Shown here: in pieces, positions 2,417 through 55,314 of the stretch
How positions within the stretch are numbered: position 1 is the stretch's first letter
How the letters are laid out: every line of letters begins with the position of its first letter
NCBI GenBank assembly: GCA_948514155.1
Contig: CAOQYA010000002.1
Location: 24,002 to 88,001 of the forward strand
Direction: 5' to 3'
DNA: 64,000 nucleotides
Source: an uncultured Eubacteriales bacterium
GTDB lineage: Bacteria; Bacillota; Clostridia; Christensenellales; UBA1242
Translations under genes and position numbers: made by a program
The notes under the pieces: model-generated
Told to the model about the DNA's origin: nothing
The model's database searches: none
Seen by the model: only the letters and a program-made list of their open reading frames with translations

Positions 2417-2492
2417 TGGTCGGAGTGGCGGGATTTGAACCCACGGCCTCTTGGTCCCGAACCAAGCGCGCTACCAACTGCGCTACACCCCG
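2417..2492 (-). tRNA. tRNA-Pro (anticodon CGG), CCA encoded
   Basis: The reverse complement reads CGGGGTGTAGCGCAGTTGGTAGCGCGCTTGGTTCGGGACCAAGAGGCCGTGGGTTCAAATCCCGCCACTCCGACCA. The cloverleaf arms pair and the anticodon loop is TTCGGGA. Confidence 0.9.
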
Positions 2493-13723: not shown

Positions 13724-13825
13724 GCAAAAAGTATAGCATATCGTTTGACAAAAAGAAAAGAAATGTGCTAGAATTTTTATAGTTTTAAAAAGCAATGACG
13801 AAAGAACATGGCCGAGTGTTTGCAA

Positions 13826-14026
13826 ATTCAGAGAGGTTTAGGTTGGTGCGATAAACTGTTGCAATTTCGGTGAATTCACTTTCCGAGCTGTCCGGCTGAA
13901 AATTTAAGTAGGCTGGGTCGGGTGCGACCGTGATATCGCAACTTGAGGGCGCAACAAAAAGCGCTGAAATTAGGTGGTAACGTGAAAGAGAACTCTTTCG
14001 CCCTAATGTGGCGGGGGAGTTTTTTT
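13826..14026 (+). promoter_or_regulatory. T-box leader (tRNA-Phe-responsive) with terminator/antiterminator, upstream of pheS
   Basis: T-box sequence AAATTAGGTGGTAACGTG (13967-13984). Terminator CTCTTTCGCC-ctaatgt-GGCGGGGGAG plus a T-run (13993-14026). UUC triplets are present in the upstream stem region. Confidence 0.8.
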
Positions 14027-17530: not shown

Positions 17531-18645
17531 TTTATTTAGATAACGCGGCGACAACGCCACTAAGTGAAAATGCGGCAAAAGAGTTTGTGAAATATTCCTG
17601 CTCTGACTTTTTTAACCCTTCCGCCACATATGTGCAAGCGGTGGAGATAAAAAATAAACTTTCTGAGGTGAGAGAAAACTTGAAAAACCTTCTCGGCGCG
17701 AGAAAGGGTGATATTGTTTTTACCGGCGGGGCGACCGAAGCCAATAATCTTGCAATTCTAGGCAGTGCGCGCGAGGGAAAGTGGGAATATATTTTCTCGG
17801 CAGGCGAACATGCGTCGGTGATAGAACTTGCCCATGCGCTCGAAAAAGAGGGCAAGACCATTTCAATTATTCCGCTGCAAAAGACGGGAGAAATTGACTA
17901 TGTAGCACTTGAAAAAGCGCTCACTCCAAAGACGAGACTTGTTAGCGTGATGTTTGTCAATAATGTTACTGGCGCGATAAACGATATTGCAAGAGTTTCG
18001 AGAATAATGAGGAAGAAGTCGCCGACTGCGCTTTTGCATGTGGACGGCGTGCAAGCGTTTGGAAAACTTGAATTCTCGCTTGATAGACTGGATGTTGACC
18101 TTTTCTCGATAAGTGCGCACAAGTTCCATGGCCCGAAAGGTGTTGGCGCGCTGTATGTGAAAAATAAGGCGGCGCTTAAAAATATCGTTTTTGGAGGTGG
18201 GCAGGAGTTTGGTGTTCGCTCGGGAACGGAGAATGTTGCCGGCATTATGGCAATGAACGAGGCGGCAAATGAAATGAAGCCGCGACAGAATTTTGAAAAA
18301 GTGTCAAATCTTAAAGGTATCTTCATGAAAGAACTTGAAAGCGTGAAGGGAATTCGTTTTGTGGGCGAAAACACTTCGCCTTACATCTTGTTAATGATAT
18401 TTTCGGGCATTAACGGTGAAACACTTGTTAGAGTGCTGGAAAATGAGGTTGTTGTCGGTCGCGGCAGTGCTTGCTCTTCTAAAAAATCGGGTAATCATGT
18501 GCTGGAGGCTATGGGGATAAGACTGGAAGATATTAAAGGTGCAGTTCGGGCGAGTTTTGACCCGATGCAGGCAGAAGAAGAAATTTTAAAAGCGGCAAGA
18601 ATAATAAAAGAGCGTTATCTTGAGCTGCTTGAGAGGTTAAAATGA
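17527..18645 (+). CDS. Cysteine desulfurase (NifS/IscS family, class V aminotransferase)
   Basis: PLP lysine context SISAHKFHGPKGVG and C-terminal GSACSS. Overlaps the pheT stop and precedes thiI. Confidence 0.85.
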   Translation: MIYLDNAATTPLSENAAKEFVKYSCSDFFNPSATYVQAVEIKNKLSEVRENLKNLLGARKGDIVFTGGATEANNLAILGSAREGKWEYIFSAGEHASVIELAHALEKEGKTISIIPLQKTGEIDYVALEKALTPKTRLVSVMFVNNVTGAINDIARVSRIMRKKSPTALLHVDGVQAFGKLEFSLDRLDVDLFSISAHKFHGPKGVGALYVKNKAALKNIVFGGGQEFGVRSGTENVAGIMAMNEAANEMKPRQNFEKVSNLKGIFMKELESVKGIRFVGENTSPYILLMIFSGINGETLVRVLENEVVVGRGSACSSKKSGNHVLEAMGIRLEDIKGAVRASFDPMQAEEEILKAARIIKERYLELLERLK

Positions 18646-19796
18646 AAAAAATTGTTTTGCTTAGGCTTGGAGAACTTTTCCTAAAAGGCGAGAACAGATA
18701 TGTTTTTGAAAATGTGCTTTTAACAAATATTCGCCGCAAATTGTCGGGGTTGAATTTCAAAATCGAGCGCACTCAAGGAAGGGTGCTTGTCACGAGTTTT
18801 GATAATGAAGACGAAATTGTTGAAAGGCTTTCAAAAGTTTTTGGGCTGACTTCTTTAAGCGTTGCTGACGAAGTTGAGGCAAGTGTGGAGGCGCTTGAAA
18901 AATACTTTGAAAAATATACAGATGTTGTTGGCGCGTTTAAAGTTGATGTTAATCGCGCGGACAAGCGTTTTCCTGTGACTTCAATGGAAATGGCGGCGAG
19001 ACTTGGTGGCGTTATTTTAGATAATAACAAAGACGCGTTTGTTGAACTATATAGGCCTCAACATATATATAAGGTTGATATTCGCCAGAACGGAAAGGCA
19101 TATGTTTTTGATAAGGTCATAAAAGGCCAAGGCGGGCTGCCGCTCGGGACATCGGGAAGAGCGCTGCTGCTTCTTTCTGGCGGAATTGATAGTCCGGTGG
19201 CCGGCTATATTATGGCAAAGCGAGGGCTTAAACTTGAGGCGCTGCATTTTCACAGTTACCCATACACTTCGCCGGAGGCAAAGCAAAAGGTGCTGACGCT
19301 TGCAAAAAAACTGACGCCATATGTTGACGAAATAAAAGTGCATTGCATTTCTTTTACGAAAGTTCAAGAGACAATTCATGCTAACTGCTCGCCGGAGTTT
19401 ATGATAACAATTATGCGCCGCATTATGATGCGCATTGCTGAGAGGCTTTGCCTTACAAATAATCTTGGTGCAATTGTCACCGGTGAAAGTTTGGGGCAAG
19501 TTGCAAGCCAGACAATGCAAAGTATGACTGTCACTGAGAATGTGGTGGAGAGTTTGCCTGTGTTTAGACCTTGCATAGGAATGGACAAAGAAGATATTGT
19601 TAAGATTGCGAAGGAAATTGACACTTTTGAGACTTCCATTTTGCCATATGAAGACTGCTGCACTGTATTCTTGCCAAAGAACCCAGTAATCAAGCCAAAA
19701 CTTGCAAAAGCCGAGCAGGAGGAAAGGAATCTCGATATTGAAGCGCTTATCGCAGAGGCAATGGCAGGCGAGGAGGTTGTTGATATTAAATTTTAA
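18642..19796 (+). CDS. thiI: tRNA uracil 4-sulfurtransferase ThiI
   Basis: THUMP-like N-terminus and PP-loop LLLSGGIDSPVA. Confidence 0.9.
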   Translation: MKKIVLLRLGELFLKGENRYVFENVLLTNIRRKLSGLNFKIERTQGRVLVTSFDNEDEIVERLSKVFGLTSLSVADEVEASVEALEKYFEKYTDVVGAFKVDVNRADKRFPVTSMEMAARLGGVILDNNKDAFVELYRPQHIYKVDIRQNGKAYVFDKVIKGQGGLPLGTSGRALLLLSGGIDSPVAGYIMAKRGLKLEALHFHSYPYTSPEAKQKVLTLAKKLTPYVDEIKVHCISFTKVQETIHANCSPEFMITIMRRIMMRIAERLCLTNNLGAIVTGESLGQVASQTMQSMTVTENVVESLPVFRPCIGMDKEDIVKIAKEIDTFETSILPYEDCCTVFLPKNPVIKPKLAKAEQEERNLDIEALIAEAMAGEEVVDIKF

Positions 19797-19810
19797 TCTT
19801 TAATTGTTAA

Positions 19811-19835
19811 GCCGCAAATTCTTGCGGCTTTTTTT
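19811..19835 (+). terminator. Rho-independent terminator of the pheST-nifS-thiI unit
   Basis: GCCGCAA-attc-TTGCGGC followed by T7. Confidence 0.8.
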
Positions 19836-19990
19836 GCGCCAAAAATTTTTTTTGGCGCGCTGGGCGAACATGAACTTGTTGCTTGTTTTCGAAGGGGCTC
19901 GAAAAGCTGCGCGCGGGCAGTTCATGTTCGCCTACTCGCGGCCAAACGAAAATCGCCACGCGATTTTGCCGCGGCTCTCGTGCGAAGAGG
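19836..19990 (+). repeat. GC-rich hairpin-dense intergenic element (type 1)
   Basis: Hairpins at 19836-19858. A 13-bp inverted repeat at 19863-19875/19920-19932 encloses 19886-19905. A further hairpin spans 19937-19973. Block-wise homologous to 2131-2250 on the opposite strand. Confidence 0.7.
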
Positions 19991-20119
19991 GGCGATGTTT
20001 TTAATATCAAAATTTTTGGCACATTCTCTTTATTTTGGGTTGGGTGAGTGCTATCATTAAATCTGCGCCGAAATTAGGCTTATGCATACTCGTTTATATT
20101 TATAAAAACGAAATTTATA

Positions 20120-20251
20120 ATTTTGCATAAACCTAAATTGTTATAAAAATTCGGTGAATAAATATTCAAAAAACACTTGCATAAATATAAATTATGTTGT
20201 ATAATAATCGAAACTCGACTTATAAATATAAATTTATAAATATTCAAAAAC
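20120..20251 (+). promoter_or_regulatory. argR control region: sigma-A-type promoter with ARG-box-like operators
   Basis: Perfect ARG-box core TGAATAAATATTCA (20155-20168). TTGCAT (20177-20182), 17 nt, then TATAAT (20200-20205). Partial boxes occur around 20175-20194 and 20231-20251. Confidence 0.6.
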
Positions 20252-20299
20252 GCTACATCCCTTTATTTTAAAGGAGAATAGCCGCTGAGGAGGAAGAGC

Positions 20300-20752
20300 A
20301 TGGCACGCAGTGCAAGACAATCGAAAATCTTGGAACTTATCTCCACAAAGGAGATTGAAACGCAGGACGAACTTGCTAGAGAACTTCGCAATGCAAATTT
20401 CGAGATAACTCAAGCCACTATTTCAAGAGACATCAAAGAACTTGGCCTGACCAAGATTTTAACTTCTTCGGGCAAATATAAGTATGCGATTGTTGGCTCG
20501 GACGAGCAGCAGATTTCGAATAAATACATAACAATCTTCCGCGAGGCAGTGATTTCTGTTAAGGCGGTGCTTAACATTGCGGTTGTTAAAACACTTAAGA
20601 GCATGGCCGGCGGCGTTTGCGGCTTTATCGATAAACTAAATCTCACAAACCTTGTTGGCGTTGTTAATGGTGACGACACGGTGATGTTAATCTTCCCAAC
20701 AGCCGGCTCTGCTTCAGATGCTGTGCAAGCACTTAGCGAAATGCTGAGTTAA
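20300..20752 (+). CDS. argR: Arginine repressor ArgR/AhrC
   Basis: RQSKILELI...TQATISRDIKELGL winged-helix and a C-terminal oligomerisation domain. Synteny with recN. Confidence 0.9.
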   Translation: MARSARQSKILELISTKEIETQDELARELRNANFEITQATISRDIKELGLTKILTSSGKYKYAIVGSDEQQISNKYITIFREAVISVKAVLNIAVVKTLKSMAGGVCGFIDKLNLTNLVGVVNGDDTVMLIFPTAGSASDAVQALSEMLS

Positions 20753-26886: not shown

Positions 26887-27849
26887 ATGAAAGGAATTTC
26901 AAAGAAACTTATCGAAGCAATCGCCAAAAGTGAAAATGAACAGTTCGCTGAAGAGACCGAAAAAAAGGTTGCTGCGCTTGTTTCGCTTGCTGTTGAAGAC
27001 CTTTCAAAAACGGTGCCATTTATCAGCGTGCAGAATTGTTTGTTGCAGCCTGTGAACGAAACTTTTAACGGCGCAATAACTCCTGACAGTGAATTTATCT
27101 ATTTTCTTGGCTTTGAAAGCCCTCAAATTGAACTTAACTGCGTTCAATACAACGACGGCTGGAAGAAGTTTAAAGAAAGGCTTATCTACGCTTGGAACGC
27201 CTCAAAACGCAAAAAGAAAAAGAAAAGAAGGAAAAAAGGCGAGCCTCAAGAACTTGCCGTGACTGCATATGAATATCAGGATGCGGGAAAATACAATCTG
27301 GGCGCACTCAAGGAAGATTTGCAAAAAGCGTTTGTTAAAAATTTAACTACAACAAGCATTGTTTACAATCAAGAGCGCTATCTTCGAGTTATCGGTCGAG
27401 ACGAATTCGGCTCGAAGACGCAGATTTACATTTATCCATGCATTATGGACGGCAACGATTTCAAATTTTTCATAAGCCGCAAAAAAGGCTTTTACACAAT
27501 AAACTTTGAAAATCGAGTGAAGTTCCTAAATGAAAAAATGGAGAAAGTGGGTGAGAATTTCCTTTCAATGATTAAAATCTTAAACACCATGTTCAGAAAC
27601 ACGCGCAACAGTTCAATTCCAAATCAGATTTTTATTGAAAGTTTGTTATATAACACTCCGGACGAATTGTTTGAAGGCAGCGACATTTACGAGGTGTTTA
27701 TAAAAATCGTGAATTTCCTTAACATGACTGATGTCAGCCAGTTTAAAAGTATTTTGAATGCAGACATGAAGATATCAGAGGATAAGGCAACAAAATCAAA
27801 TCAAATTGCATTCGTTAAATTCTTAGGTTCTTTGAATGAAATAAATTAG
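26887..27849 (+). CDS. Hypothetical protein with an internal poly-Lys/Arg tract
   Basis: 320 aa with tract SKRKKKKKRRKKGE. The C-terminal IFIESLLYNTPDELF segment is reminiscent of nucleotidyltransferase-fold helper domains, but no clear GS/DxD motif is present. Confidence 0.45.
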   Translation: MKGISKKLIEAIAKSENEQFAEETEKKVAALVSLAVEDLSKTVPFISVQNCLLQPVNETFNGAITPDSEFIYFLGFESPQIELNCVQYNDGWKKFKERLIYAWNASKRKKKKKRRKKGEPQELAVTAYEYQDAGKYNLGALKEDLQKAFVKNLTTTSIVYNQERYLRVIGRDEFGSKTQIYIYPCIMDGNDFKFFISRKKGFYTINFENRVKFLNEKMEKVGENFLSMIKILNTMFRNTRNSSIPNQIFIESLLYNTPDELFEGSDIYEVFIKIVNFLNMTDVSQFKSILNADMKISEDKATKSNQIAFVKFLGSLNEIN

Positions 27850-27919
27850 TTTGTTTCGCTAATCAAATTTAAAAAAAGACATGTTTCATAATACCGGAAA
27901 AAACTTTTATTGAAAAATT

Positions 27920-27965
27920 GAGAGATATTGTAGTTATATAAAAATAACATAATATCTCTCTTTTT
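27920..27965 (+). terminator. Rho-independent terminator after the 320-aa ORF
   Basis: GAGAGATATT (27920-27929) pairs with AATATCTCTC (27951-27960), followed by T5. Confidence 0.7.
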
Positions 27966-27981
27966 CAGAGTATTATATCAC

Positions 27982-28017
27982 TATCTATGCGCAAAACCTG
28001 TCTTTTGCGCATAGATA
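27982..28017. promoter_or_regulatory. Perfect 15-bp-arm palindrome (operator or hairpin) upstream of the PadR-like gene
   Basis: TATCTATGCGCAAAA-cctgtc-TTTTGCGCATAGATA. Confidence 0.5.
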
Positions 28018-28097: not shown

Positions 28098-28117
28098 GCC
28101 TATAGAGGGTGAAAAAT

Positions 28118-29752
28118 ATGGAAGTTTTAGCAAAGGGGCAACTCTCATACATGATACTCTCCTGCCTTAGCGACAGAGACATGTATGGCCTTGAACTTAT
28201 AGATGAAATTAAAGCGCGTTACGGAAGAGAAATTAAACTTCCGAGTTTATATTCTAACATTAACAGAATGAAGGAACTTAAATACATATCTTCATATCTG
28301 AAAGAAAGCACAAAAGGCCCCAAATGCTCATATTCGAGTATCACCGAGGCCGGACGCAAAGAACTGGAAGAACTTGAAAAAGAGTTTAGTGGAATAAGTT
28401 TCTCTCAGCCAGAGTCTAAAAAAGAAGTGGAGCCGGAAGTTGACGATTTTACGAGAGCGCTCTTTGGCGCATATATTCCTCCTGCGTCCCCTATTGAAGA
28501 GGAAAACCCTAGCGACGATTATAACGACTATTTCTCTTTTTCAGACAATGAAGAAGAGGCTAAGCAAGAAGCGCAGGAAGAAAAGGCGCCTAGTTTTGTT
28601 ATGCAAGAAAAAATTGCTGTTGACCAGATTGAACGAGAAGAAAATTCTGTTGAAATAAAAGTTCAGCAACCTCAAGAGGCTGAACTTGACTCTGCACGCG
28701 AAGAGCAGTCGCAAGAAGCCCAGCAATACAATCAGAAAGTATATGCCGCGGCAAAAGATTTTTCTAAGAACAAAAACAAGCGTTCATATTCTGAAAATCA
28801 GATTGAACTTGCTCTTTCTACCTCTCCTGCTCGCTCAGAAGAAGTTGTAAAGCAAGATTTGACAGAACTTAAGTCGGCACTCCTCTCCTCCCGTCAAGGC
28901 CATTATGAAGAAATAAAAGTGCCAGAGCCAAAGCAGACGCTGGTCACAATTGACGAGGCTTCGAAGGAGACTTTGCCTGCTGCTGCGCCTGAAACTACTC
29001 CTATCAAAGAGGAAACACGCGAGGACGACGGCAGATTTATCACTGATAGACTTTCAGAGGACGCCATTCCAAAGCCAAAGCGCATTGACCCGCCAAGACT
29101 TAACATCTTAGTTCAAAATTATGATAGAAAACTGCCAGCGCCGAAGCGAAATGTGGCAGTTGACCCAACTTGCAGTGATGTTAAGGCAAAACTTGAAAGC
29201 CTCTATGCCAAGGCAGAGGTCAAGAAAGAGCCTGTTTATGAGGTTAACGACTTTGAGAACTATGACGACCTTAAAAGATATTTTGCTTCGCAAGAAGTTG
29301 AATTTAAAGTGTATGAAAAAATGGCGAAGCGACCAAAGCATAACACAAACTTCCTTAAACTTTGCATCAGCCTTGCAATGCTTGGCATTGTGGGGGTTGG
29401 CAGCGCGATAATGTATCTCATTTTCAGCCTTTGCGGCCTGACAAGTGCGGCAACAAACTTTGTTTATTATCTCTTCCCTATCATTGCGGCCGTGTTTGCA
29501 CTGTATAATTTCTATAACTATAAAACAACTCAAAGTAAAGTTCCAACTAAGATATGGCATCCGGCGATTGTTTGGAGTATGTTTGCCTGCCTGATTGCGA
29601 TTATCTTCCTTCTTAACTATGTTTGTGGCATGCCGTTTAATGAAATTAACTCCTATTTCTCGACAATCTTAGTTCCGGTGTTTGCAGCCGGCTGCGCGAC
29701 GATTGGAATTTACTACATTCAAATTTTCGCATATAAAAAATGGTGGAAATAG
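28118..29752 (+). CDS. Membrane-anchored PadR-like transcriptional regulator: N-terminal wHTH, long acidic linker, C-terminal about 4 TM
   Basis: N-terminus LSYMILSCLSDRDMYGLELIDEIKARYG...LPSLYSNINRMKELKYI is PadR-like. About 270 aa are E/Q/K/P-rich. The C-terminus has four hydrophobic helices. Confidence 0.6.
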   Translation: MEVLAKGQLSYMILSCLSDRDMYGLELIDEIKARYGREIKLPSLYSNINRMKELKYISSYLKESTKGPKCSYSSITEAGRKELEELEKEFSGISFSQPESKKEVEPEVDDFTRALFGAYIPPASPIEEENPSDDYNDYFSFSDNEEEAKQEAQEEKAPSFVMQEKIAVDQIEREENSVEIKVQQPQEAELDSAREEQSQEAQQYNQKVYAAAKDFSKNKNKRSYSENQIELALSTSPARSEEVVKQDLTELKSALLSSRQGHYEEIKVPEPKQTLVTIDEASKETLPAAAPETTPIKEETREDDGRFITDRLSEDAIPKPKRIDPPRLNILVQNYDRKLPAPKRNVAVDPTCSDVKAKLESLYAKAEVKKEPVYEVNDFENYDDLKRYFASQEVEFKVYEKMAKRPKHNTNFLKLCISLAMLGIVGVGSAIMYLIFSLCGLTSAATNFVYYLFPIIAAVFALYNFYNYKTTQSKVPTKIWHPAIVWSMFACLIAIIFLLNYVCGMPFNEINSYFSTILVPVFAAGCATIGIYYIQIFAYKKWWK

Positions 29753-49427: not shown

Positions 49428-49898
49428 CTATTCAACAGGAATTATTTTAATATTTTTAAGTTCTGTGCCAAGTTGCTCTTGAATTATTGCAACAACTTGT
49501 GCAACTTCGTTTTCTGTGAGAACTGCTGCGTCTACAAGCACATTCACATTTGCTGTTGACATGGTGATAACGCAGTCCTTAAAGCCAAGGCCTTTAACCA
49601 GCCCTTCAACAACAAGTTCTTTGTCCATTTGTGCGATAAGATTTATTCTTGCCTGGTCGGCGTTCTTGATTGCTTCTTCTGATGATGACGGACTTTCAAC
49701 TATCGCTTGATAGTAAAGAAGTTCTTGGTCGCGTCTTGCTTCCCTGTCTTGACGATAGGAAGCAAAGTAACTTGCGGTTGTTGTTTGAGTTGGAACATTG
49801 TCTTTCACAGAATTGTTGAGAGCCACATTCAGATAACCTGTCACGCCCAACAGCACCACCATGACCGCAAGAATAATGATTTTTGTTCTCTTTTTCAT
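49428..49898 (-). CDS. spoIIIAH: Stage III sporulation protein AH
   Basis: N-terminal TM, SpoIIIAH-like C-terminus, last gene of the operon. ATG 49898 lies 7 nt after AAGGAG. Confidence 0.8.
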   Translation of the reverse strand: MKKRTKIIILAVMVVLLGVTGYLNVALNNSVKDNVPTQTTTASYFASYRQDREARRDQELLYYQAIVESPSSSEEAIKNADQARINLIAQMDKELVVEGLVKGLGFKDCVITMSTANVNVLVDAAVLTENEVAQVVAIIQEQLGTELKNIKIIPVE

Positions 49899-49911
49899 TT
49901 TCATTCTCCTT

Positions 49912-50442
49912 TTATGCACCTGTTAATATCAAAATATCTTCATTTGCAATGTCGACCACAGTTTGTATGGCTGTGACGAGGTTGAGCCTCACCGAAATGT
50001 TGTCTGCTCCACTCGCCGACACCAGCACGCCCTTAATTTCGGGATATATCTCCTTCACAAGCACAGGTTTGCCCGAGACGAGGATAATGCTGCTTGTCGT
50101 TGTTGAGCCGGACGAGTTTTCTTTGACCGTCTCTTCGGTGGCGTAGACATATTCAAAGCCGCTGCCGAGAGTGACCAGCACACTCACATTGCCAGCACCC
50201 TTGACTTGGCTGAGAATGCCCTCAAGCTTGTCCTCCAAGCCTTTGGCGTAAGCCTCGGCGTCAGAGGCTGATATTGATGTGTCGGTCTCTTTTTGCGGGC
50301 TTTTCGCCGGAGTGCGAATGAAAAGGAAATAGCATAATATCAACATTCCTATAACTAGGATGGCCAGTCCTATTTGTAGTTTTCGATTTTCCTTTATGCT
50401 TCGCCCAAGATTTTTAAGCTTGTCCAAAAACTCACCTTTCAA
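49912..50442 (-). CDS. spoIIIAG: Stage III sporulation protein AG
   Basis: TM segment plus the conserved C-terminal GVLVSASGADN... Probable TTG start at 50442 after GGAGGTG. Confidence 0.8.
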   Translation of the reverse strand: MKGEFLDKLKNLGRSIKENRKLQIGLAILVIGMLILCYFLFIRTPAKSPQKETDTSISASDAEAYAKGLEDKLEGILSQVKGAGNVSVLVTLGSGFEYVYATEETVKENSSGSTTTSSIILVSGKPVLVKEIYPEIKGVLVSASGADNISVRLNLVTAIQTVVDIANEDILILTGA

Positions 50443-50932
50443 AATGCACCTCCGACGCCTCGACTTTTGCATGAGCAATCACTATCTCTAGTATTTCGTG
50501 CTCGATGTCTAAAATATCTTTATGTTTGGCATTCTCTGTTATGACTAAATTCCTTAGTTCGACATATATCGCATTAATCTTAAAGTTTGTGGAGAAGTTT
50601 TCGGCTGAAACTGACACTTCAACATTATTGTAACCACTTTTTTTTATGTCGAGTGAAATGCCCTCTTGTATCGCTTTCGTCTTATATACATTCATTTGAT
50701 AGATGTAGTCTTCTTGGAGCGTGTAGTTATCTGATATGGAAATGTCGGAAAAGGAGAAGTTTTTGCCAATTAGGCCAGGGAGCGGCGCGATTATAACAAG
50801 CACAACAATGAATGAAAATATGCTGCGAATATATTTGTTAAGTTGACCTTCCGGCAGCATCAGTTCCACAATGACCGATAGGCTGATTATGCCGGCGATT
50901 GAAAGTATCCACGCAGAAACAGAGCCAAACAT
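50432..50932 (-). CDS. spoIIIAF: Stage III sporulation protein AF
   Basis: Two N-terminal TM segments (WILSIAGIISLSVIVELMLPEG) and operon position. Confidence 0.8.
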   Translation of the reverse strand: MFGSVSAWILSIAGIISLSVIVELMLPEGQLNKYIRSIFSFIVVLVIIAPLPGLIGKNFSFSDISISDNYTLQEDYIYQMNVYKTKAIQEGISLDIKKSGYNNVEVSVSAENFSTNFKINAIYVELRNLVITENAKHKDILDIEHEILEIVIAHAKVEASEVHFER

Positions 50933-50973
50933 CTTTTCGTCCTCCTTTTTTGTTAATTAGATTTTTCTTGAAC

Positions 50974-51100
50974 GGGGCGACGCAATCGGCGCGCGCGTAG
51001 CGCGCGCCCCCGCCCTCGGGCGCCAAGCGCAAAAAGTATTTTTGCGAGCCGCCCGAGGGCTGTAAATTTCGCCTCCGGCGAAATTTGCTTGCGTCGCCCC
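50974..51100. repeat. GC-rich perfect four-way-junction (cloverleaf-like) palindromic element between spoIIIAE and spoIIIAF
   Basis: Outer 12-bp stem 50974-50985/51089-51100. Arms: 50988-51008 (9 bp); 51012-51022/51050-51060 (11 bp) enclosing 51028-51046 (8 bp); and 51064-51086 (10 bp). All pairs are Watson-Crick. Confidence 0.8.
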
Positions 51101-51120
51101 ACTTGTCCTTGCCCCGAGTG

Positions 51121-52329
51121 CTATAGGATGTTCGCACTGCACATCACAAGCCCAGTTAAAATCACATACATGAACGACACAGCCACAATCATGGAAATAA
51201 GCATAGTCATGTTTTTGGAAAGAGTGCTCACAAACGAGGCAATCTTTCCGTCGCCTAGCGGCTCGATAATTCCCGCCATAAGTTTAAGCGCAAGCATGAA
51301 GATAATCAGTTCTATCACCGGTGCGATAATCGTTCCTGCAAGCAGCAGCATTCCGCACGCGCCGACAGCGTTCTTGATAAGGCTTGACGAAGCCAGCACA
51401 ATATATAATCCGTCTGAGATATAGGACCCGACAATAGGCACATAACTCTTAATTGCAAACTTGGCCGTTTTTATCGAAAGCCCGTCAATCGAGCCGGCTG
51501 CAATTCCTTGAATGGATGCAAAGCCGATAAACACAGTAAACACAAGCCCAATCACCCACTTGAACATTGAGTTGATAAAGGAAATAAATTTGTCAAGTTT
51601 GACATTGTTGGAAAGATTGCTCACAAGTGACAAGACTGTGGAAATAAGAAACAGCGGCATAAGAAAGATTGTAAAAATGTTGATAATAAGGCTGGCAAGA
51701 AGAGCCATTGCCGTCTGATAGACAGACACGGACACGCTGCCACCGACCGCAGTCAGCATTGTTAAGAGAATTGGAAACACGGCATCCATTTGAGCCTTGA
51801 TTGAGCCAATCGTCGAAGTTGTGACCGATATCATGCGCATTATCACCGAGAAAATGAGAATGACCACCACTCCATATGTGACAAAGTGAATAATTGAGCC
51901 CATCGACTTGTTTCCGAAGTTGGGCTTCAAGTTCTGCATCATTCCCCCTAGAATTGCAACGGCAATAACGGTGGCAATAATCGGCAAAAATGAAAGCAGA
52001 TTATCAAATATGAGATTGAGCAGCGCCTGCCAAATGGAAGTTGAGTCATTTGCAAAATCGCCGCTTATTATCGAGGCCAATTTTTCAAGAAAACTCTTGC
52101 CCTGAAAAAGGTCGGCCGCATTTCCGGAATTATTTAAAATGTCTTCAAGGTCGGAAAGGTCGAGGTCGCCAAGTTGGTCACCAACGGCATCGTCAAGTTT
52201 GTCTGAAAGGTCCTCTTCTGCACTTGCCGCAAAACAAATTTGTGGCAGCGTATAGTTTGCCGCTAAAATGGGAGACAGGCAGATTAGCAGCATAAAGATT
52301 GATAAAACAAGAACTTTTAACTTTCTCAT
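51121..52329 (-). CDS. spoIIIAE: Stage III sporulation protein AE
   Basis: 402 aa polytopic membrane protein with signal peptide. SpoIIIAE-like. Confidence 0.9.
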   Translation of the reverse strand: MRKLKVLVLSIFMLLICLSPILAANYTLPQICFAASAEEDLSDKLDDAVGDQLGDLDLSDLEDILNNSGNAADLFQGKSFLEKLASIISGDFANDSTSIWQALLNLIFDNLLSFLPIIATVIAVAILGGMMQNLKPNFGNKSMGSIIHFVTYGVVVILIFSVIMRMISVTTSTIGSIKAQMDAVFPILLTMLTAVGGSVSVSVYQTAMALLASLIINIFTIFLMPLFLISTVLSLVSNLSNNVKLDKFISFINSMFKWVIGLVFTVFIGFASIQGIAAGSIDGLSIKTAKFAIKSYVPIVGSYISDGLYIVLASSSLIKNAVGACGMLLLAGTIIAPVIELIIFMLALKLMAGIIEPLGDGKIASFVSTLSKNMTMLISMIVAVSFMYVILTGLVMCSANIL

Positions 52330-52718
52330 GTCGGCAAGAGTTCCATAACAATGTTAAGAATGCTTGTCACGATAGGCAGCGACATGACAAGAATTATTAT
52401 CTTGCCGCCAAGGAGGATTTTGTCTCCCAGTCCCCCATTTCCCGTGTCGGCGCAAAGGCTGGCGGTGAATTCGGTCAGATATCCCACTCCAATTATCTTA
52501 AACACGACGGCAATAAGATTTCCATTTAGCCCCGTCTTGTTTGCAAGCGAGCCCACAAGAGAAAGCACGCCGGAAATCGAAGACAGCACCATGATTAAAA
52601 TCACAATGCCGCCCACCATGGAAATAATCATGGCAAAATCACTGCGCACCGGTTTAACAATCAGTGCGGCGATGCAGGTTATCAGCCCTATTCCCATGAT
52701 TTTGAAGATTAGTTCCAT
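52326..52718 (-). CDS. spoIIIAD: Stage III sporulation protein AD
   Basis: 130 aa, 4 TM, MELIFKIMGIGLIT... Confidence 0.9.
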   Translation of the reverse strand: MELIFKIMGIGLITCIAALIVKPVRSDFAMIISMVGGIVILIMVLSSISGVLSLVGSLANKTGLNGNLIAVVFKIIGVGYLTEFTASLCADTGNGGLGDKILLGGKIIILVMSLPIVTSILNIVMELLPT

Positions 52719-52736
52719 GCTCTCTCCCTACTCTAT

Positions 52737-52937
52737 CTACAGCCCAAAGTCGAACATTTTTTGAATGGTGCCGAACAGGTCGCCAATCAGCGACAGCACC
52801 ATAACGATAACGATTATCAGCCCTGCAAGTGTGGCAAATGTGCCAATTTCTTCCTTTCCGGTCTGTTTAAGAATTTGTGTGACGACGGCGGTAAGCAGTC
52901 CGATTGCTGCAATTTTAAAAATTATTTCCACTCCCAT
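52737..52937 (-). CDS. spoIIIAC: Stage III sporulation protein AC
   Basis: 66 aa, 2 TM, IFKIAAIGLLTAVVTQILKQTGKEE. Confidence 0.9.
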   Translation of the reverse strand: MGVEIIFKIAAIGLLTAVVTQILKQTGKEEIGTFATLAGLIIVIVMVLSLIGDLFGTIQKMFDFGL

Positions 52938-52947
52938 AGCCCCCTCC

Positions 52948-53442
52948 TTAAATTAAAATCACAATGGCAAAGAGCCCAGCGATAATTCCCAGTTTGAAGC
53001 ATAGAGAGCCATATTTTTTGTTTTCTGCCGCGCATTTAGAAAGGCTGTCGTCGAAGCGCTTTAGAAAGTTTTGAATTTCTTTGGTCTGCCCCAGCACATC
53101 GCTGCGTCCCAGACTTTTGAAAAACAAAAACACCATTTCCTTCTCTTCGCTTTTAAGAAGCGGACAGTTTTTGAAAAGTTTTTCCTCGCTAAGTTCCTCA
53201 GTTCCTTCCAAATAACTGAGAAAGTTCTTATCAAGCCCAAACAAACTTTTCTTTGTCTTTTCGTCCATGCCCTCAATAAGTTTTTTCAGCCGCTCGCGTG
53301 AAAAGTTGATTTCAACATCCAGTTTCTGTGCAAAGAGGATAAGCGCCGAATAGAACTGCACTCGGCGTTTATATTTGATTGAAAAAACATATCCAACTGT
53401 CACGCACGCAATGAATAGCGCTGCCAAAATAATCCATTTCAT
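52948..53442 (-). CDS. spoIIIAB: Stage III sporulation protein AB
   Basis: 164 aa, N- and C-terminal TM segments, operon position. Confidence 0.85.
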   Translation of the reverse strand: MKWIILAALFIACVTVGYVFSIKYKRRVQFYSALILFAQKLDVEINFSRERLKKLIEGMDEKTKKSLFGLDKNFLSYLEGTEELSEEKLFKNCPLLKSEEKEMVFLFFKSLGRSDVLGQTKEIQNFLKRFDDSLSKCAAENKKYGSLCFKLGIIAGLFAIVILI

Positions 53443-53443
53443 A

Positions 53444-54346
53444 TCACCACCTCATAAGTCTTGAAAAGTTTTCGTCATAAATTCCTTCAAGTGTGCCCGG
53501 CCCTTCGCGCATCGAAAGCACAACATATCGGGAAAACACTTTTTCGTCGATAAGTTCCCTAAACGCCGCTTTTTTAAGGAAACTCTCGATGCTGTCAGAG
53601 TGAGTTGAAGCAATTATTCTAACACCCGAATTGCAGGCGAACTTTACCGCTTCCACATCCTCCCATTCGCTTAATTCGTCGGTGACGATTATGTTCGGAG
53701 CAAGCGAGCGGATGCCGTTTTCAAAGCCGATTTTCTTGGAGGCAAAACTGATAATGTCGCTAAAATTACCTAGACCTTTTCCGATGTTCAGTTCGCCTCT
53801 CTCGTCAAGCACAAGCACATTGAAAGCAAGATTTCTCTCCGAAAGTTGGCAGACAAAATCTCTTAAAAATGTGGTCTTGCCTGCGCCCGGCGGCGAGATT
53901 ATCAGCGTGCTGTAAACGCCGTCCTCTTTCACGATGCTGGAATATGCTTTCAGCGAGCAGTTTTTCACCTCGTGAGGAATTCGGATGTTGACCGAGGAAA
54001 AGCCAGTCATAGTTTTAACTTGTCCCGCCTCTTCAATCATGTTGCCGCCAATGCCGATGCGGATGCCGTTTGGAGTGGCGATGTAGCCCTTTTTGATTTG
54101 CTCGTTGACAGAATAGATGGAGCATTCGCTCGCGCGGAAGATAATCTCTTCAATCATTGACGCGGTGGCATATATTGCGCCCGAAAGATTGCGGGATTTT
54201 CCCTCGTCATTAAGAAAAAACTTCTGCCCCATGCAAGAGAGAAGCACCGGCTTATCGGCGCGCAGTCTAATTTCGTTAAGCGCCCCAAAGCCCACCCTGT
54301 TTTTGATTGGAAGAAAGATTTTATCGGGCAATATTCCCTCAAGCAT
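53444..54346 (-). CDS. spoIIIAA: Stage III sporulation protein AA (AAA-type ATPase)
   Basis: Walker A ISPPGAGKTTFLRD, Walker B VLVLDE. Confidence 0.9.
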   Translation of the reverse strand: MLEGILPDKIFLPIKNRVGFGALNEIRLRADKPVLLSCMGQKFFLNDEGKSRNLSGAIYATASMIEEIIFRASECSIYSVNEQIKKGYIATPNGIRIGIGGNMIEEAGQVKTMTGFSSVNIRIPHEVKNCSLKAYSSIVKEDGVYSTLIISPPGAGKTTFLRDFVCQLSERNLAFNVLVLDERGELNIGKGLGNFSDIISFASKKIGFENGIRSLAPNIIVTDELSEWEDVEAVKFACNSGVRIIASTHSDSIESFLKKAAFRELIDEKVFSRYVVLSMREGPGTLEGIYDENFSRLMRW

Positions 54347-54441
54347 AGCCGCCTCCTTAGCAAAATATATGCCCTGGCTTTATTTGCGCATGAGAAGAAA
54401 AAGGAGGAATTATGCCGATAAAAAAAGTGGCGGCTGCCACT

Positions 54442-55314
54442 TCATATGGAAACAACATTTTCTAATATTGTGCTTTTAGAAAAATTCTCCATGTCCAAAT
54501 ATTGATCAAATGATATGTTGCTATTGACTGTGGAAGGTGTGTTTAAAATGTTGAAGTCGCCTTTATAGTTTTCTATAGAAATTCTTCCAAAAACTTTTTC
54601 AAGCGGACAGTCTTGACAAATATGCTGCGAAATTAAATCGCCAACAACAAATCTCACACCCTTGCAATTTCCATTGTATTTTCCCACTTGCAGTTCGCTT
54701 GTCCTGCAGCCTAAATGCTCTGCTAACAGCGGCTTCAGCATCGGCTCAGATAAGAGTTCACGCTTGGCAGCCGGATAGTAAATCGTCTTAACATTTTCAA
54801 GGTCATTTCTTCCTTCAAAAAGCAGGTCATATCCGTTATATGAAAGATCATCAATCAGTTTTTGTGGCGAGATTTCTGCATATCGCTTTTGCTGGAATAA
54901 TGCTTTGGTTTGCCTCAAACTTTCAAGCCATTCAACTTGTTTTTTCCAGTTGGCAGATTTGTAAAGTTGAGAGTTATTATCGAAGAACTCTTTTGCAACA
55001 TCAAAGAATGCGCTTTCAATGTTTTGCTCCTTGCCGTCCGATAAGCCTCTAAAGCCGCAAAGCGCTCCAACGCCGCTGCAGTGGCCGACAATCTTCAACT
55101 GATTAAAGTTGTCAACAAAAATAAACACAACATTTGCATTTAGTAAGTCCTCGACCATTGCCATTTTGTTAAGGCATATGTAAGTGTTTTTTGTGTATGA
55201 AAAAAGCCTTGCGCAGTTCTCTTCAAAATGAAGAGGTTCAAGTTCTTTGGACGCAAAACTGAGCCAGCGACCTTTTCCAAAAGTGTTTAAATTTTCTAAT
55301 TCAATTTTAAACAT
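54442..55314 (-). CDS. Hypothetical protein (about 290 aa), possibly translated from a leaderless mRNA
   Basis: ORF between efp and spoIIIAA with no recognisable family. ATG 55314 lies 7 nt after a consensus -10. Confidence 0.45.
   Translation of the reverse strand: MFKIELENLNTFGKGRWLSFASKELEPLHFEENCARLFSYTKNTYICLNKMAMVEDLLNANVVFIFVDNFNQLKIVGHCSGVGALCGFRGLSDGKEQNIESAFFDVAKEFFDNNSQLYKSANWKKQVEWLESLRQTKALFQQKRYAEISPQKLIDDLSYNGYDLLFEGRNDLENVKTIYYPAAKRELLSEPMLKPLLAEHLGCRTSELQVGKYNGNCKGVRFVVGDLISQHICQDCPLEKVFGRISIENYKGDFNILNTPSTVNSNISFDQYLDMENFSKSTILENVVSI

Follow-up and report, generated by a model that had tools for sequence, protein, structure and literature searches.

A palindromic four-way junction between spoIIIAE and spoIIIAF in a lineage of uncultured Clostridia

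The spoIIIA operon and its 188-nt spacer

The window analysed here (the whole 64,000-nucleotide, or 64-kb, stretch of contig CAOQYA010000002.1) carries the spoIIIA sporulation operon, in which a G+C-rich palindrome that folds into a four-way junction separates spoIIIAE from spoIIIAF. The source is an uncultured species of a gut-type Clostridia lineage, seen only as metagenome-assembled genomes (MAGs) or metagenome assemblies, e.g. GCA_949103525.1. The operon is preceded by efp and followed by asp23, nusB and xseA, and its eight genes are located as follows.

53444-54346, minus strand: spoIIIAA, NCBIfam match
52948-53442, minus strand: spoIIIAB, NCBIfam match
52737-52937, minus strand: spoIIIAC, NCBIfam match
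52326-52718, minus strand: spoIIIAD, NCBIfam match
51121-52329, minus strand: spoIIIAE, 402 aa, TIGR02829 (E 5e-65), TAG stop at 51121-51123
50432-50932, minus strand: spoIIIAF, 166 aa, TIGR02896 (E 3e-12)
about 49912-50442, minus strand: spoIIIAG, NCBIfam match
49428-49919, minus strand: spoIIIAH, Pfam match (gene calls)

The 188-nt gap between spoIIIAE and spoIIIAF (50933-51120), with a G+C-rich core at 50974-51100, had been noticed in an earlier inspection of the sequence (hereafter the original prediction), and both the gap and the core are confirmed from the gene calls and the sequence. The original prediction also held that the other seven junctions of the operon abut or overlap. Eight genes make seven junctions, so there are six others, and these are tight as stated (+1, +10, +18, -4, -11 and +13 nt in the gene calls). 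The position of the spoIIIAE stop codon is unchanged in relatives, and the N-terminus of SpoIIIAF can be aligned with theirs. In sense order, the spacer consists of a 20-nt left flank, the 127-nt core and a 41-nt right flank, with the following parts.

51101-51120, minus strand: left flank, sense CACTCGGGGCAAGGACAAGT, 20 nt, unpaired, between the spoIIIAE stop and the closing stem
50974-51100, minus strand: core compound palindrome, 127 nt, a four-way junction in RNA and DNA folds
50974-50985 / 51089-51100, minus strand: closing stem P1, 12 bp, fully complementary
51064-51073 / 51077-51086, minus strand: arm 1 (sense), AAATTTCGCC-GGA-GGCGAAATTT, 10 bp
51012-51022 / 51050-51060, minus strand: arm 2 outer stem, 11 bp, enclosing an internal loop and the inner hairpin
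51028-51035 / 51039-51046, minus strand: arm 2 inner A5/T5 hairpin, 8 bp (8-9 bp)
50988-50996 / 51000-51008, minus strand: arm 3, GGCGCGCGC-TAC-GCGCGCGCC, 9 bp
50933-50973, minus strand: right flank, GTTCAAGAAAAATCTAATTAACAAAAAAGGAGGACGAAAAG, 41 nt, including the spoIIIAF Shine-Dalgarno sequence

All the stems named in the original prediction were found, each fully complementary. Its description of a fold without a single mismatch holds for the stems and not for the whole structure, since the junction linkers do not pair and arm 2 is interrupted by an asymmetric 3 x 5 internal loop. RNA folding of both strands gave a minimum-free-energy structure that is precisely this four-way junction on either strand, as had been anticipated. 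The 188-nt spacer folds as RNA with -95.1 kcal/mol on the sense strand (z-score -7.3) and -97.5 kcal/mol on the antisense strand (z-score -8.0), and none of 200 shuffled sequences was equally stable. As DNA, the 127-nt core folds with -61.2 kcal/mol (z -10.6). The G+C content of the core is 66-82% (peak of 82% in 60-nt windows), vs 42% for the 64-kb window. In GC-corrected folding, nothing in the window stands out more than the spacer, which shares first place with an AT-rich hairpin pair at about 27900. In the sense-strand fold, GGAC of the left flank pairs with the conserved GUUC that follows the closing stem. The right flank continues from this conserved GTTCAA through a variable A/U-rich stretch to the Shine-Dalgarno sequence AAGGAGG, 6 nt before the spoIIIAF ATG. 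The observation is confirmed as real and lies well beyond chance.

The element resembles no annotated feature type for which the window was scanned. A scan of the whole window with Rfam 15 at gathering thresholds gave no match at the element, and the best match in an E-value scan of the region had E 0.043 and 24 bits, where the gathering score is 80. The sole gathering-threshold matches in the window are a T-box leader (13786-14008, plus strand, 107 bits) and a tRNA (2420-2492, minus strand). ARAGORN detected no tRNA or tmRNA and Tandem Repeats Finder no tandem repeat at the element. The terminator scan returned 0 terminator-like sites there, and no U-run follows the closing stem on either strand, where the sense strand reads GUUCAAGAAAAAUC and the antisense strand ACUUGUCCUUGCC. 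Neither strand has a convincing promoter, and no sigma-70-like promoter was recognised at the element. Its G+C richness keeps all three sense frames open, and the open reading frames that span the element, including 50838-51137 and 50957-51142, have no family matches. Variants of the element (below) differ by indels of 31 and 11 nt, which destroy any frame; we therefore rejected a coding function and agree with the original prediction that these frames are artefacts of G+C richness. Read-through of the spoIIIAE TAG was likewise rejected, since the resulting tails would be unrelated in different lineages.

Distribution, age and base pairing of the element

We gathered the spoIIIAE-spoIIIAF junctions of relatives by looking up homologues of SpoIIIAE (AE) and SpoIIIAF (AF). 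Ten contigs of the same species came from the first SpoIIIAF look-up, and the spacer is identical in 8 of them. Contig L007 carries one single-nucleotide polymorphism, located within an internal loop, and L010 (GCA_949050755.1) starts inside the element, with the Illumina adapter CTACACGACGCTCTTCCGATCT at positions 1-22 fused within the closing stem. Contigs that end at or inside the element are represented by the starts of L006, L008, L010, L224 and L225. The palindrome evidently breaks short-read assemblies, and adapter contamination was evidently left in the public MAG to which L010 belongs. The junctions beyond these contigs, ordered by identity to the window, are as follows.

L226 and L017-L019: 99% AE identity, spacer 188 nt, element present with a few changes
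L011: 92% AE identity, spacer 157 nt, element present
L223: 92% AF identity, spacer 177 nt, element present
L015: 90% AE identity, spacer 177 nt, element present
L016: 86% AE identity, spacer 50 nt (L016 1893-1942), element absent
L012 and L013: 83% AE identity, spacer 12 nt, element absent
L014: 81% AE identity, spacer 10 nt, element absent
L227: 79% AE identity, spacer 12 nt, element absent
L228: 71% AE identity, spacer 10 nt, element absent

Seven sequence variants from at least three lineages thus carry the element, all at the same junction. A covariance model built from the variants matches this junction alone in carriers and has no match in the non-carrier relatives. The six relatives at 71-86% AE identity have no palindrome; five have spacers of 10-12 nt, which hold just the stop codon, AAGGAGG and the ATG, and one has a spacer of 50 nt. 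The original prediction of an insertion is therefore borne out by the junctions of relatives. Judged from this comparison of sequences, the element is an insertion relative to the ancestral tight junction, and it is old and lineage-specific. In its 3' part (TCAAATTAAT..AAAAGG), the 50-nt L016 spacer is similar to the right flank of the element, with which it has TCAAATTAA...AAAAGG in common, and this spacer may represent an intermediate between the 10-12-nt and the 157-188-nt junctions. The likely history is a 10-12-nt spacer that grew to about 50 nt and then received the palindrome.

The same prediction had considered the insertion to be young, and this part does not stand. Identity at fourfold-degenerate sites between the window and L011, L015 or L223 is 49-60% (87-88% for L017), and changes in the stems are compensated, as described below. 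Since the carriers share the element at near-saturated synonymous divergence, it predates that divergence. Recent recombination or transfer of the element is unlikely, since the element is more diverged than its coding flanks. The 60 nt of spoIIIAE that adjoin the element are 100% identical to L011, and equally high peaks of identity occur elsewhere in the operon.

To examine the pairing, the seven distinct variants were aligned in structural register and their pairs were counted. Across the 52 pairs of the structure, 97.4% of 345 pair cells are paired, and six pairs in four of the five helices have changed on both sides. These double changes are A:U to G:C in P1, C:G to G:C in P2 (the loop-closing pair of arm 1, in L011, L015 and L223), C:G to U:A and G:C to C:G in P3 (the outer stem of arm 2), and A:U to G:C and A:U to C:G in the inner hairpin of arm 2. 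All six split the same two groups of variants, so they count as six events and not more. In addition, one entire base pair of the closing stem was deleted on both strands between lineages. No fixed one-sided stem change was found among the seven variants; the two one-sided stem mutations seen, in L017 and L015, are recent polymorphisms. The covariation score was reached by none of 500 shuffles, and when the 3' partners are slid by 1-3 columns, pairing falls to 29-56%.

The unpaired parts of the core have diverged further. Stem identity of the window is 88% to L011 and 84% to L223, vs 62% and 61%, respectively, for loops and junctions, which is about neutral. The stem of arm 3 is invariant in all seven variants, with a loop of TAC, TGC or TCC. 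In the flanks, the left flank of the window is identical at 20 of 20 positions in L011 and at 17 of 20 in L015 and L223, and the middle of the right flank has diverged with indels among the variants, with GTTCAA and the Shine-Dalgarno sequence retained. The alignment shows purifying selection on base pairing, and not on the sequence of loops and junctions. Loops and junctions that drift almost neutrally are not what a ligand-binding or catalytic RNA would lead one to expect; they fit a generic, very stable structure.

The element seems to be confined to this one locus. Neither blastn with word size 7 nor an unfiltered covariance-model scan found a second copy in the window, where the next best match of the model scored 13.5 bits. 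Among 185,579 GTDB species-representative genomes, the arm-1 pattern had 107 matches, all isolated hairpins in unrelated taxa and none with the rest of the element; the source species is not among these matches, and the search of the source genome thus covers the 64-kb window. The exact closing-stem pattern had 96 matches in the JGI metagenomes, none of them this element, and neither an exact-pattern scan of IMG/VR nor blastn of the PLSDB plasmids and INPHARED phages returned a match. About half of the closing-stem matches, in JGI soil contigs L127-L222, belong to one abundant family of long-hairpin repeats of about 100-125 nt from unrelated soil organisms (GGGCGGCGCAAGCGCCCCCACC...CCCGCCCCTAC-loop-GTAGGGGCGGG...GGTGGGGGCGCTTGCGCCGCCC, e.g. 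L164 3625-3742). The JGI contigs L199 and L221 have REP-like GGGGCGACGCAAGCCCC units. Kinship of these units with the element was rejected, since identity extends only 3 nt past the 11 nt that the pattern requires, and is judged to be chance.

The idea that the element shares the style of other G+C-rich hairpins in the window also found no support, as the other hairpins have neither sequence nor model similarity to it. The motif CGCAAAA...TTTTGCG recurs once in the window, at 27990, GCGCAAAA is not enriched, and no hairpin family was detected in the window. The other hairpins of the window are terminators and unrelated palindromes. Three consecutive perfect hairpins (z -4.7) lie in the 500-nt intergenic region 19797-20300, after the open reading frame 18642-19796 (plus strand): a terminator-like hairpin followed by a T-run (19809-19830), a second hairpin GCGCCAAAAA/TTTTTGGCGC (19836-19858) and a second compound palindrome with a perfect 14-bp closing stem (19863-19876 / 19919-19932). 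At the sequence level, this region and the spoIIIA element are not similar. Two adjacent perfect hairpins (27915-28017, z -7.1), the second with a 15-bp stem TATCTATGCGCAAAA/TTTTGCGCATAGATA, occupy an AT-rich spacer between the open reading frames 26887-27849 and 28109-29752.

RNA- and DNA-level explanations

We tentatively favour an RNA structure with a protective or processing role, by which the spoIIIAA-spoIIIAE half of the operon would be uncoupled from the spoIIIAF-spoIIIAH half, a reading that we regard as plausible but short of probable. A partition of the operon into sub-transcripts had been put forward as a possibility in the original prediction. The polycistronic spoIIIA mRNA would form a very stable branched structure (core about -70 kcal/mol or more), which would block 3'-to-5' exonucleases and so stabilise the spoIIIAA-spoIIIAE part. 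It might also be a signal for an endonuclease to cut within the A/U-rich stretch that follows it. The two segments would then have separate fates, as in 'selective RNA processing and stabilisation' (SRPS). The insertion supplants the ancestral 10-12-nt arrangement of stop codon, Shine-Dalgarno sequence and start codon, so that spoIIIAF would be translated from its own free Shine-Dalgarno sequence, and translational coupling of spoIIIAF to spoIIIAE would be swapped for independent initiation.

Several properties of the element agree with this scheme. As in structures of the SRPS type, a stable intercistronic structure without a terminator U-tract is present, structure rather than sequence is conserved, and an A/U-rich, single-stranded stretch follows directly on the 3' side. 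The distance from the stop codon to the closing stem is 20 nt in every variant, and the spoIIIAF Shine-Dalgarno sequence lies 26-28 nt clear of the closing stem across the variants; with these distances, both cistrons should be translatable with the structure folded. Given the size of ribosome footprints, 20 nt should leave the closing stem intact when a ribosome terminates at the stop codon. Operon stoichiometry is reshaped by protective 3' structures (PMC5927463, with malEFG and puf as cited cases). In the cip-cel operon, cleavage occurs just downstream of G+C-rich intergenic stem-loops, the hairpins stabilise the processed ends and the stoichiometry is thereby set (PMC10311766). An internal partition of spoIIIA also exists in B. 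subtilis and C. difficile, where it is made by a promoter before spoIIIAG, not spoIIIAF (PMC4605598, PMC3789822); this internal sigma-E promoter boosts the distal part of the operon in both species and is credited, for B. subtilis, to Guillot & Moran 2007 in PMC4605598. As a more specific variant, an RNase III substrate was rejected, since the long coaxial arm 2 is not conserved and has just 11 bp in L011.

A number of observations weigh against the favoured RNA structure. In L011, a deletion has removed the inner hairpin from arm 2, so that part of the structure is dispensable. Of the 345 pair cells, 335 are Watson-Crick and one is a marginal G.U; the near absence of G.U weighs against constraint at the RNA level only, which normally tolerates some G.U. 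Three of the six double changes are of the transversion type, for which no G.U intermediate is possible, and the one-sided mutations of L017 and L015 give A.C on the sense RNA and G.U on the antisense strand. A plain exonuclease barrier would also leave unexplained why the left flank, although unpaired, is as strongly conserved as the stems. We infer the function of the element as a whole, as we do everything beyond structure, age and constraint, including co-transcription of the element with the operon and its effect on mRNA decay or processing.

The Watson-Crick pairing throughout, on both strands, would also be expected of a functionless DNA palindrome that maintains itself, an explanation that we consider unlikely, if far from negligible. 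Such a palindrome would have been born by template switching or fold-back synthesis, would be kept by intrastrand 'quasipalindrome' correction, and would be tolerated because the stop codon and the Shine-Dalgarno sequence stay free. Template switching is known to correct quasipalindromes (Ripley's model). The transversion-type half of the double changes and the missing inner hairpin of L011 point in the same direction, as does an exact inversion of the inner-hairpin loop from TAC to GTA in L017-L019, strains at 99% AE identity from three independent samples; this change is one DNA inversion event and not three point mutations. Furthermore, the 724-nt contig L224 opens (positions 1-51) with an exact reverse-complemented copy of the 5' half of the element of L223, which is linked via the closing-stem repeat to a normal 3' flank, and model R1 matches L224 on the minus strand with 41 bits. 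Either the interior of the palindrome has truly been inverted in the population, or L224 is a chimera of library or assembly origin that arose at the 11-nt inverted repeat, a possibility that counts against self-maintenance. On the other hand, correction preserves complementarity and not sequence across species, yet the stems are 84-88% identical vs 49-60% at neutral sites. The unpaired left flank, identical at 17-20 of 20 positions, also speaks against a self-maintaining palindrome, and the element has been kept in every contig of at least three lineages despite the deletion bias of bacteria. The conserved left flank would instead suit a regulatory site at the DNA level, where a SpoIIID-type box, perhaps with cruciform extrusion, would allow SpoIIID, a regulator of the mother cell, to modulate or block transcription into spoIIIAF-spoIIIAH; this seems improbable. 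The sequence AAGGACAAGT of the left flank agrees at 8 of 10 positions with TAGGACAAGC, the idealised SpoIIID site of B. subtilis (quoted in PMC11180830), a consensus that may not be that of this clade. The core GGACAAG is intact at 51102-51108 (minus strand), and all variants have GGACAAG or GGACAAC. In the window GGACAAG occurs 13 times vs 5.0 +/- 2.3 expected, with five copies in the spoIIIA region, and the two-strand symmetry of the palindrome fits constraint on DNA. In B. subtilis, spoIIIA is under direct repression by SpoIIID (PMC517825); the operon of C. difficile is repressed by it as well, and putative boxes are located there before spoIIIAA and spoIIIAG (PMC3789822). However, the motif match is post hoc, and the degenerate motif WWRRACARNY is not enriched (59 matches vs 58 expected). 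The GGACAAG copies of the operon are all on the sense strand and mostly within coding sequences, a pattern that points to an effect of codons or RNA, and SpoIIID binds its 10-bp site as a monomer, for which a 127-bp palindrome is not needed. We therefore treat the SpoIIID-like box of the left flank as a candidate and a lead only; pairing of its GGAC with the GUUC that follows the closing stem offers an alternative. Combining the two DNA-level ideas, a cruciform-forming and occasionally flipping palindrome with a SpoIIID-type box might serve in the mother cell as a developmental switch or roadblock between the two operon halves, rather than as a plain RNA hairpin. We hold this to be as doubtful as the regulatory site itself. 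It is compatible with the Watson-Crick-only pairing, the loop inversion, the half-element of L224 and the conserved GGACAAG flank, which a simple RNA barrier does not explain.

Two further explanations concern the origin of the element and its possible part in transcription. The original prediction had allowed for a neutral mobile insertion. A discrete G+C-rich insertion bounded by a perfect inverted repeat of 12 bp, in a genome of 42% G+C, does look like the result of such an event, with a non-autonomous element of MITE-, REP/BIME- or PATE-like type inserted into the spacer; moreover, the copy search of the source genome is confined to the 64-kb window. We give this only a slim chance, since the search for other copies in the window, GTDB, JGI, IMG/VR, plasmids and phages found none, comparison with the empty sites showed no terminal or target-site duplication around the insertion, and the neighbouring genes (spoIIIA, asp23, nusB and xseA) include no transposase or RAYT. 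Dispersed copies, and a target-site duplication or partner transposase, by which REP/BIME- or MITE-type elements are recognised, are thus both wanting, and the element is orthologous and vertically inherited at one locus. Slimmer still is the chance of an intra-operon terminator, attenuator or pause site, or of an independent or antisense small-RNA gene. So stable a nascent hairpin could pause RNA polymerase, and the antisense strand folds equally well. Against these readings stand the missing U-run after the closing stem on either strand, the 0 terminator-like sites of the scan, the lack of a convincing promoter on either strand, a best Rfam match of 24 bits where the gathering score is 80, and the unconserved loops and junctions.

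Some observations on GGACAAG stand apart from this weighing. The spoIIIA region (window 49428-54800) has 5-6 copies in carriers (the window, L011 and L017), without exception on the sense strand, and 0-2 in non-carrier relatives. In the window, the copy TTGGACAAGC (50418-50427) is located a short way into spoIIIAG, close to the position that the internal promoter has in other species.

Relation to known intercistronic structures

The element is a single-locus, lineage-restricted and structurally constrained four-way junction that belongs to the known class of intercistronic structures. It resembles the malE-malF REP of E. coli, the puf decay terminator of Rhodobacter and the structures of Dar & Sorek 2018 (PMC5927463) in being stable, G+C-rich, intercistronic, conserved and without a terminator tail, and in being expected to stop 3' exonucleases. 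All of these, however, consist of one hairpin or a pair of hairpins, and REPs come in families of many copies, whereas the present element is a predicted single-copy four-way junction with at least 50 perfect Watson-Crick pairs in a sporulation operon of Clostridia. The cip-cel operon of Ruminiclostridium cellulolyticum (PMC10311766) is likewise a long operon of Clostridia in which G+C-rich intergenic stems are followed by a single-stranded A/U-rich stretch, with a proposed role in subunit stoichiometry. There is no sequence similarity between the two, and cip-cel has simple stem-loops that are cleaved, at six spacers, in contrast to one branched element at one spacer that is known from sequence. 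With REP/BIME, MITE, ERIC and RUP elements it shares a compact palindromic form, insertion into a non-coding spacer and a G+C content above that of the host, and it differs from them in having no dispersed copies in the collections searched, no target-site duplication and no partner transposase. Separate expression of the distal part of the operon would be shared with the internal sigma-E promoter of spoIIIAG (PMC3789822, PMC4605598), but that promoter lies before spoIIIAG and not spoIIIAF, and no promoter-like sequence is present at the element.

If the favoured RNA structure is correct, the machine built by the sporulation operon, the SpoIIIA-SpoIIQ channel, would have gained a post-transcriptional control point in one Clostridial lineage. 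The subunits of this channel are needed in very different amounts, and the control point would be one structured module in a spacer that otherwise measures 10-12 nt. The scope of this conclusion is one locus in uncultured organisms. With an empty site, a possible 50-nt intermediate and several diverged occupied sites, the locus shows the birth of an intercistronic structure and its compensatory upkeep, and the combination of Watson-Crick-only pairing with a loop inversion makes it a natural test of selection at the RNA level vs palindrome maintenance at the DNA level.

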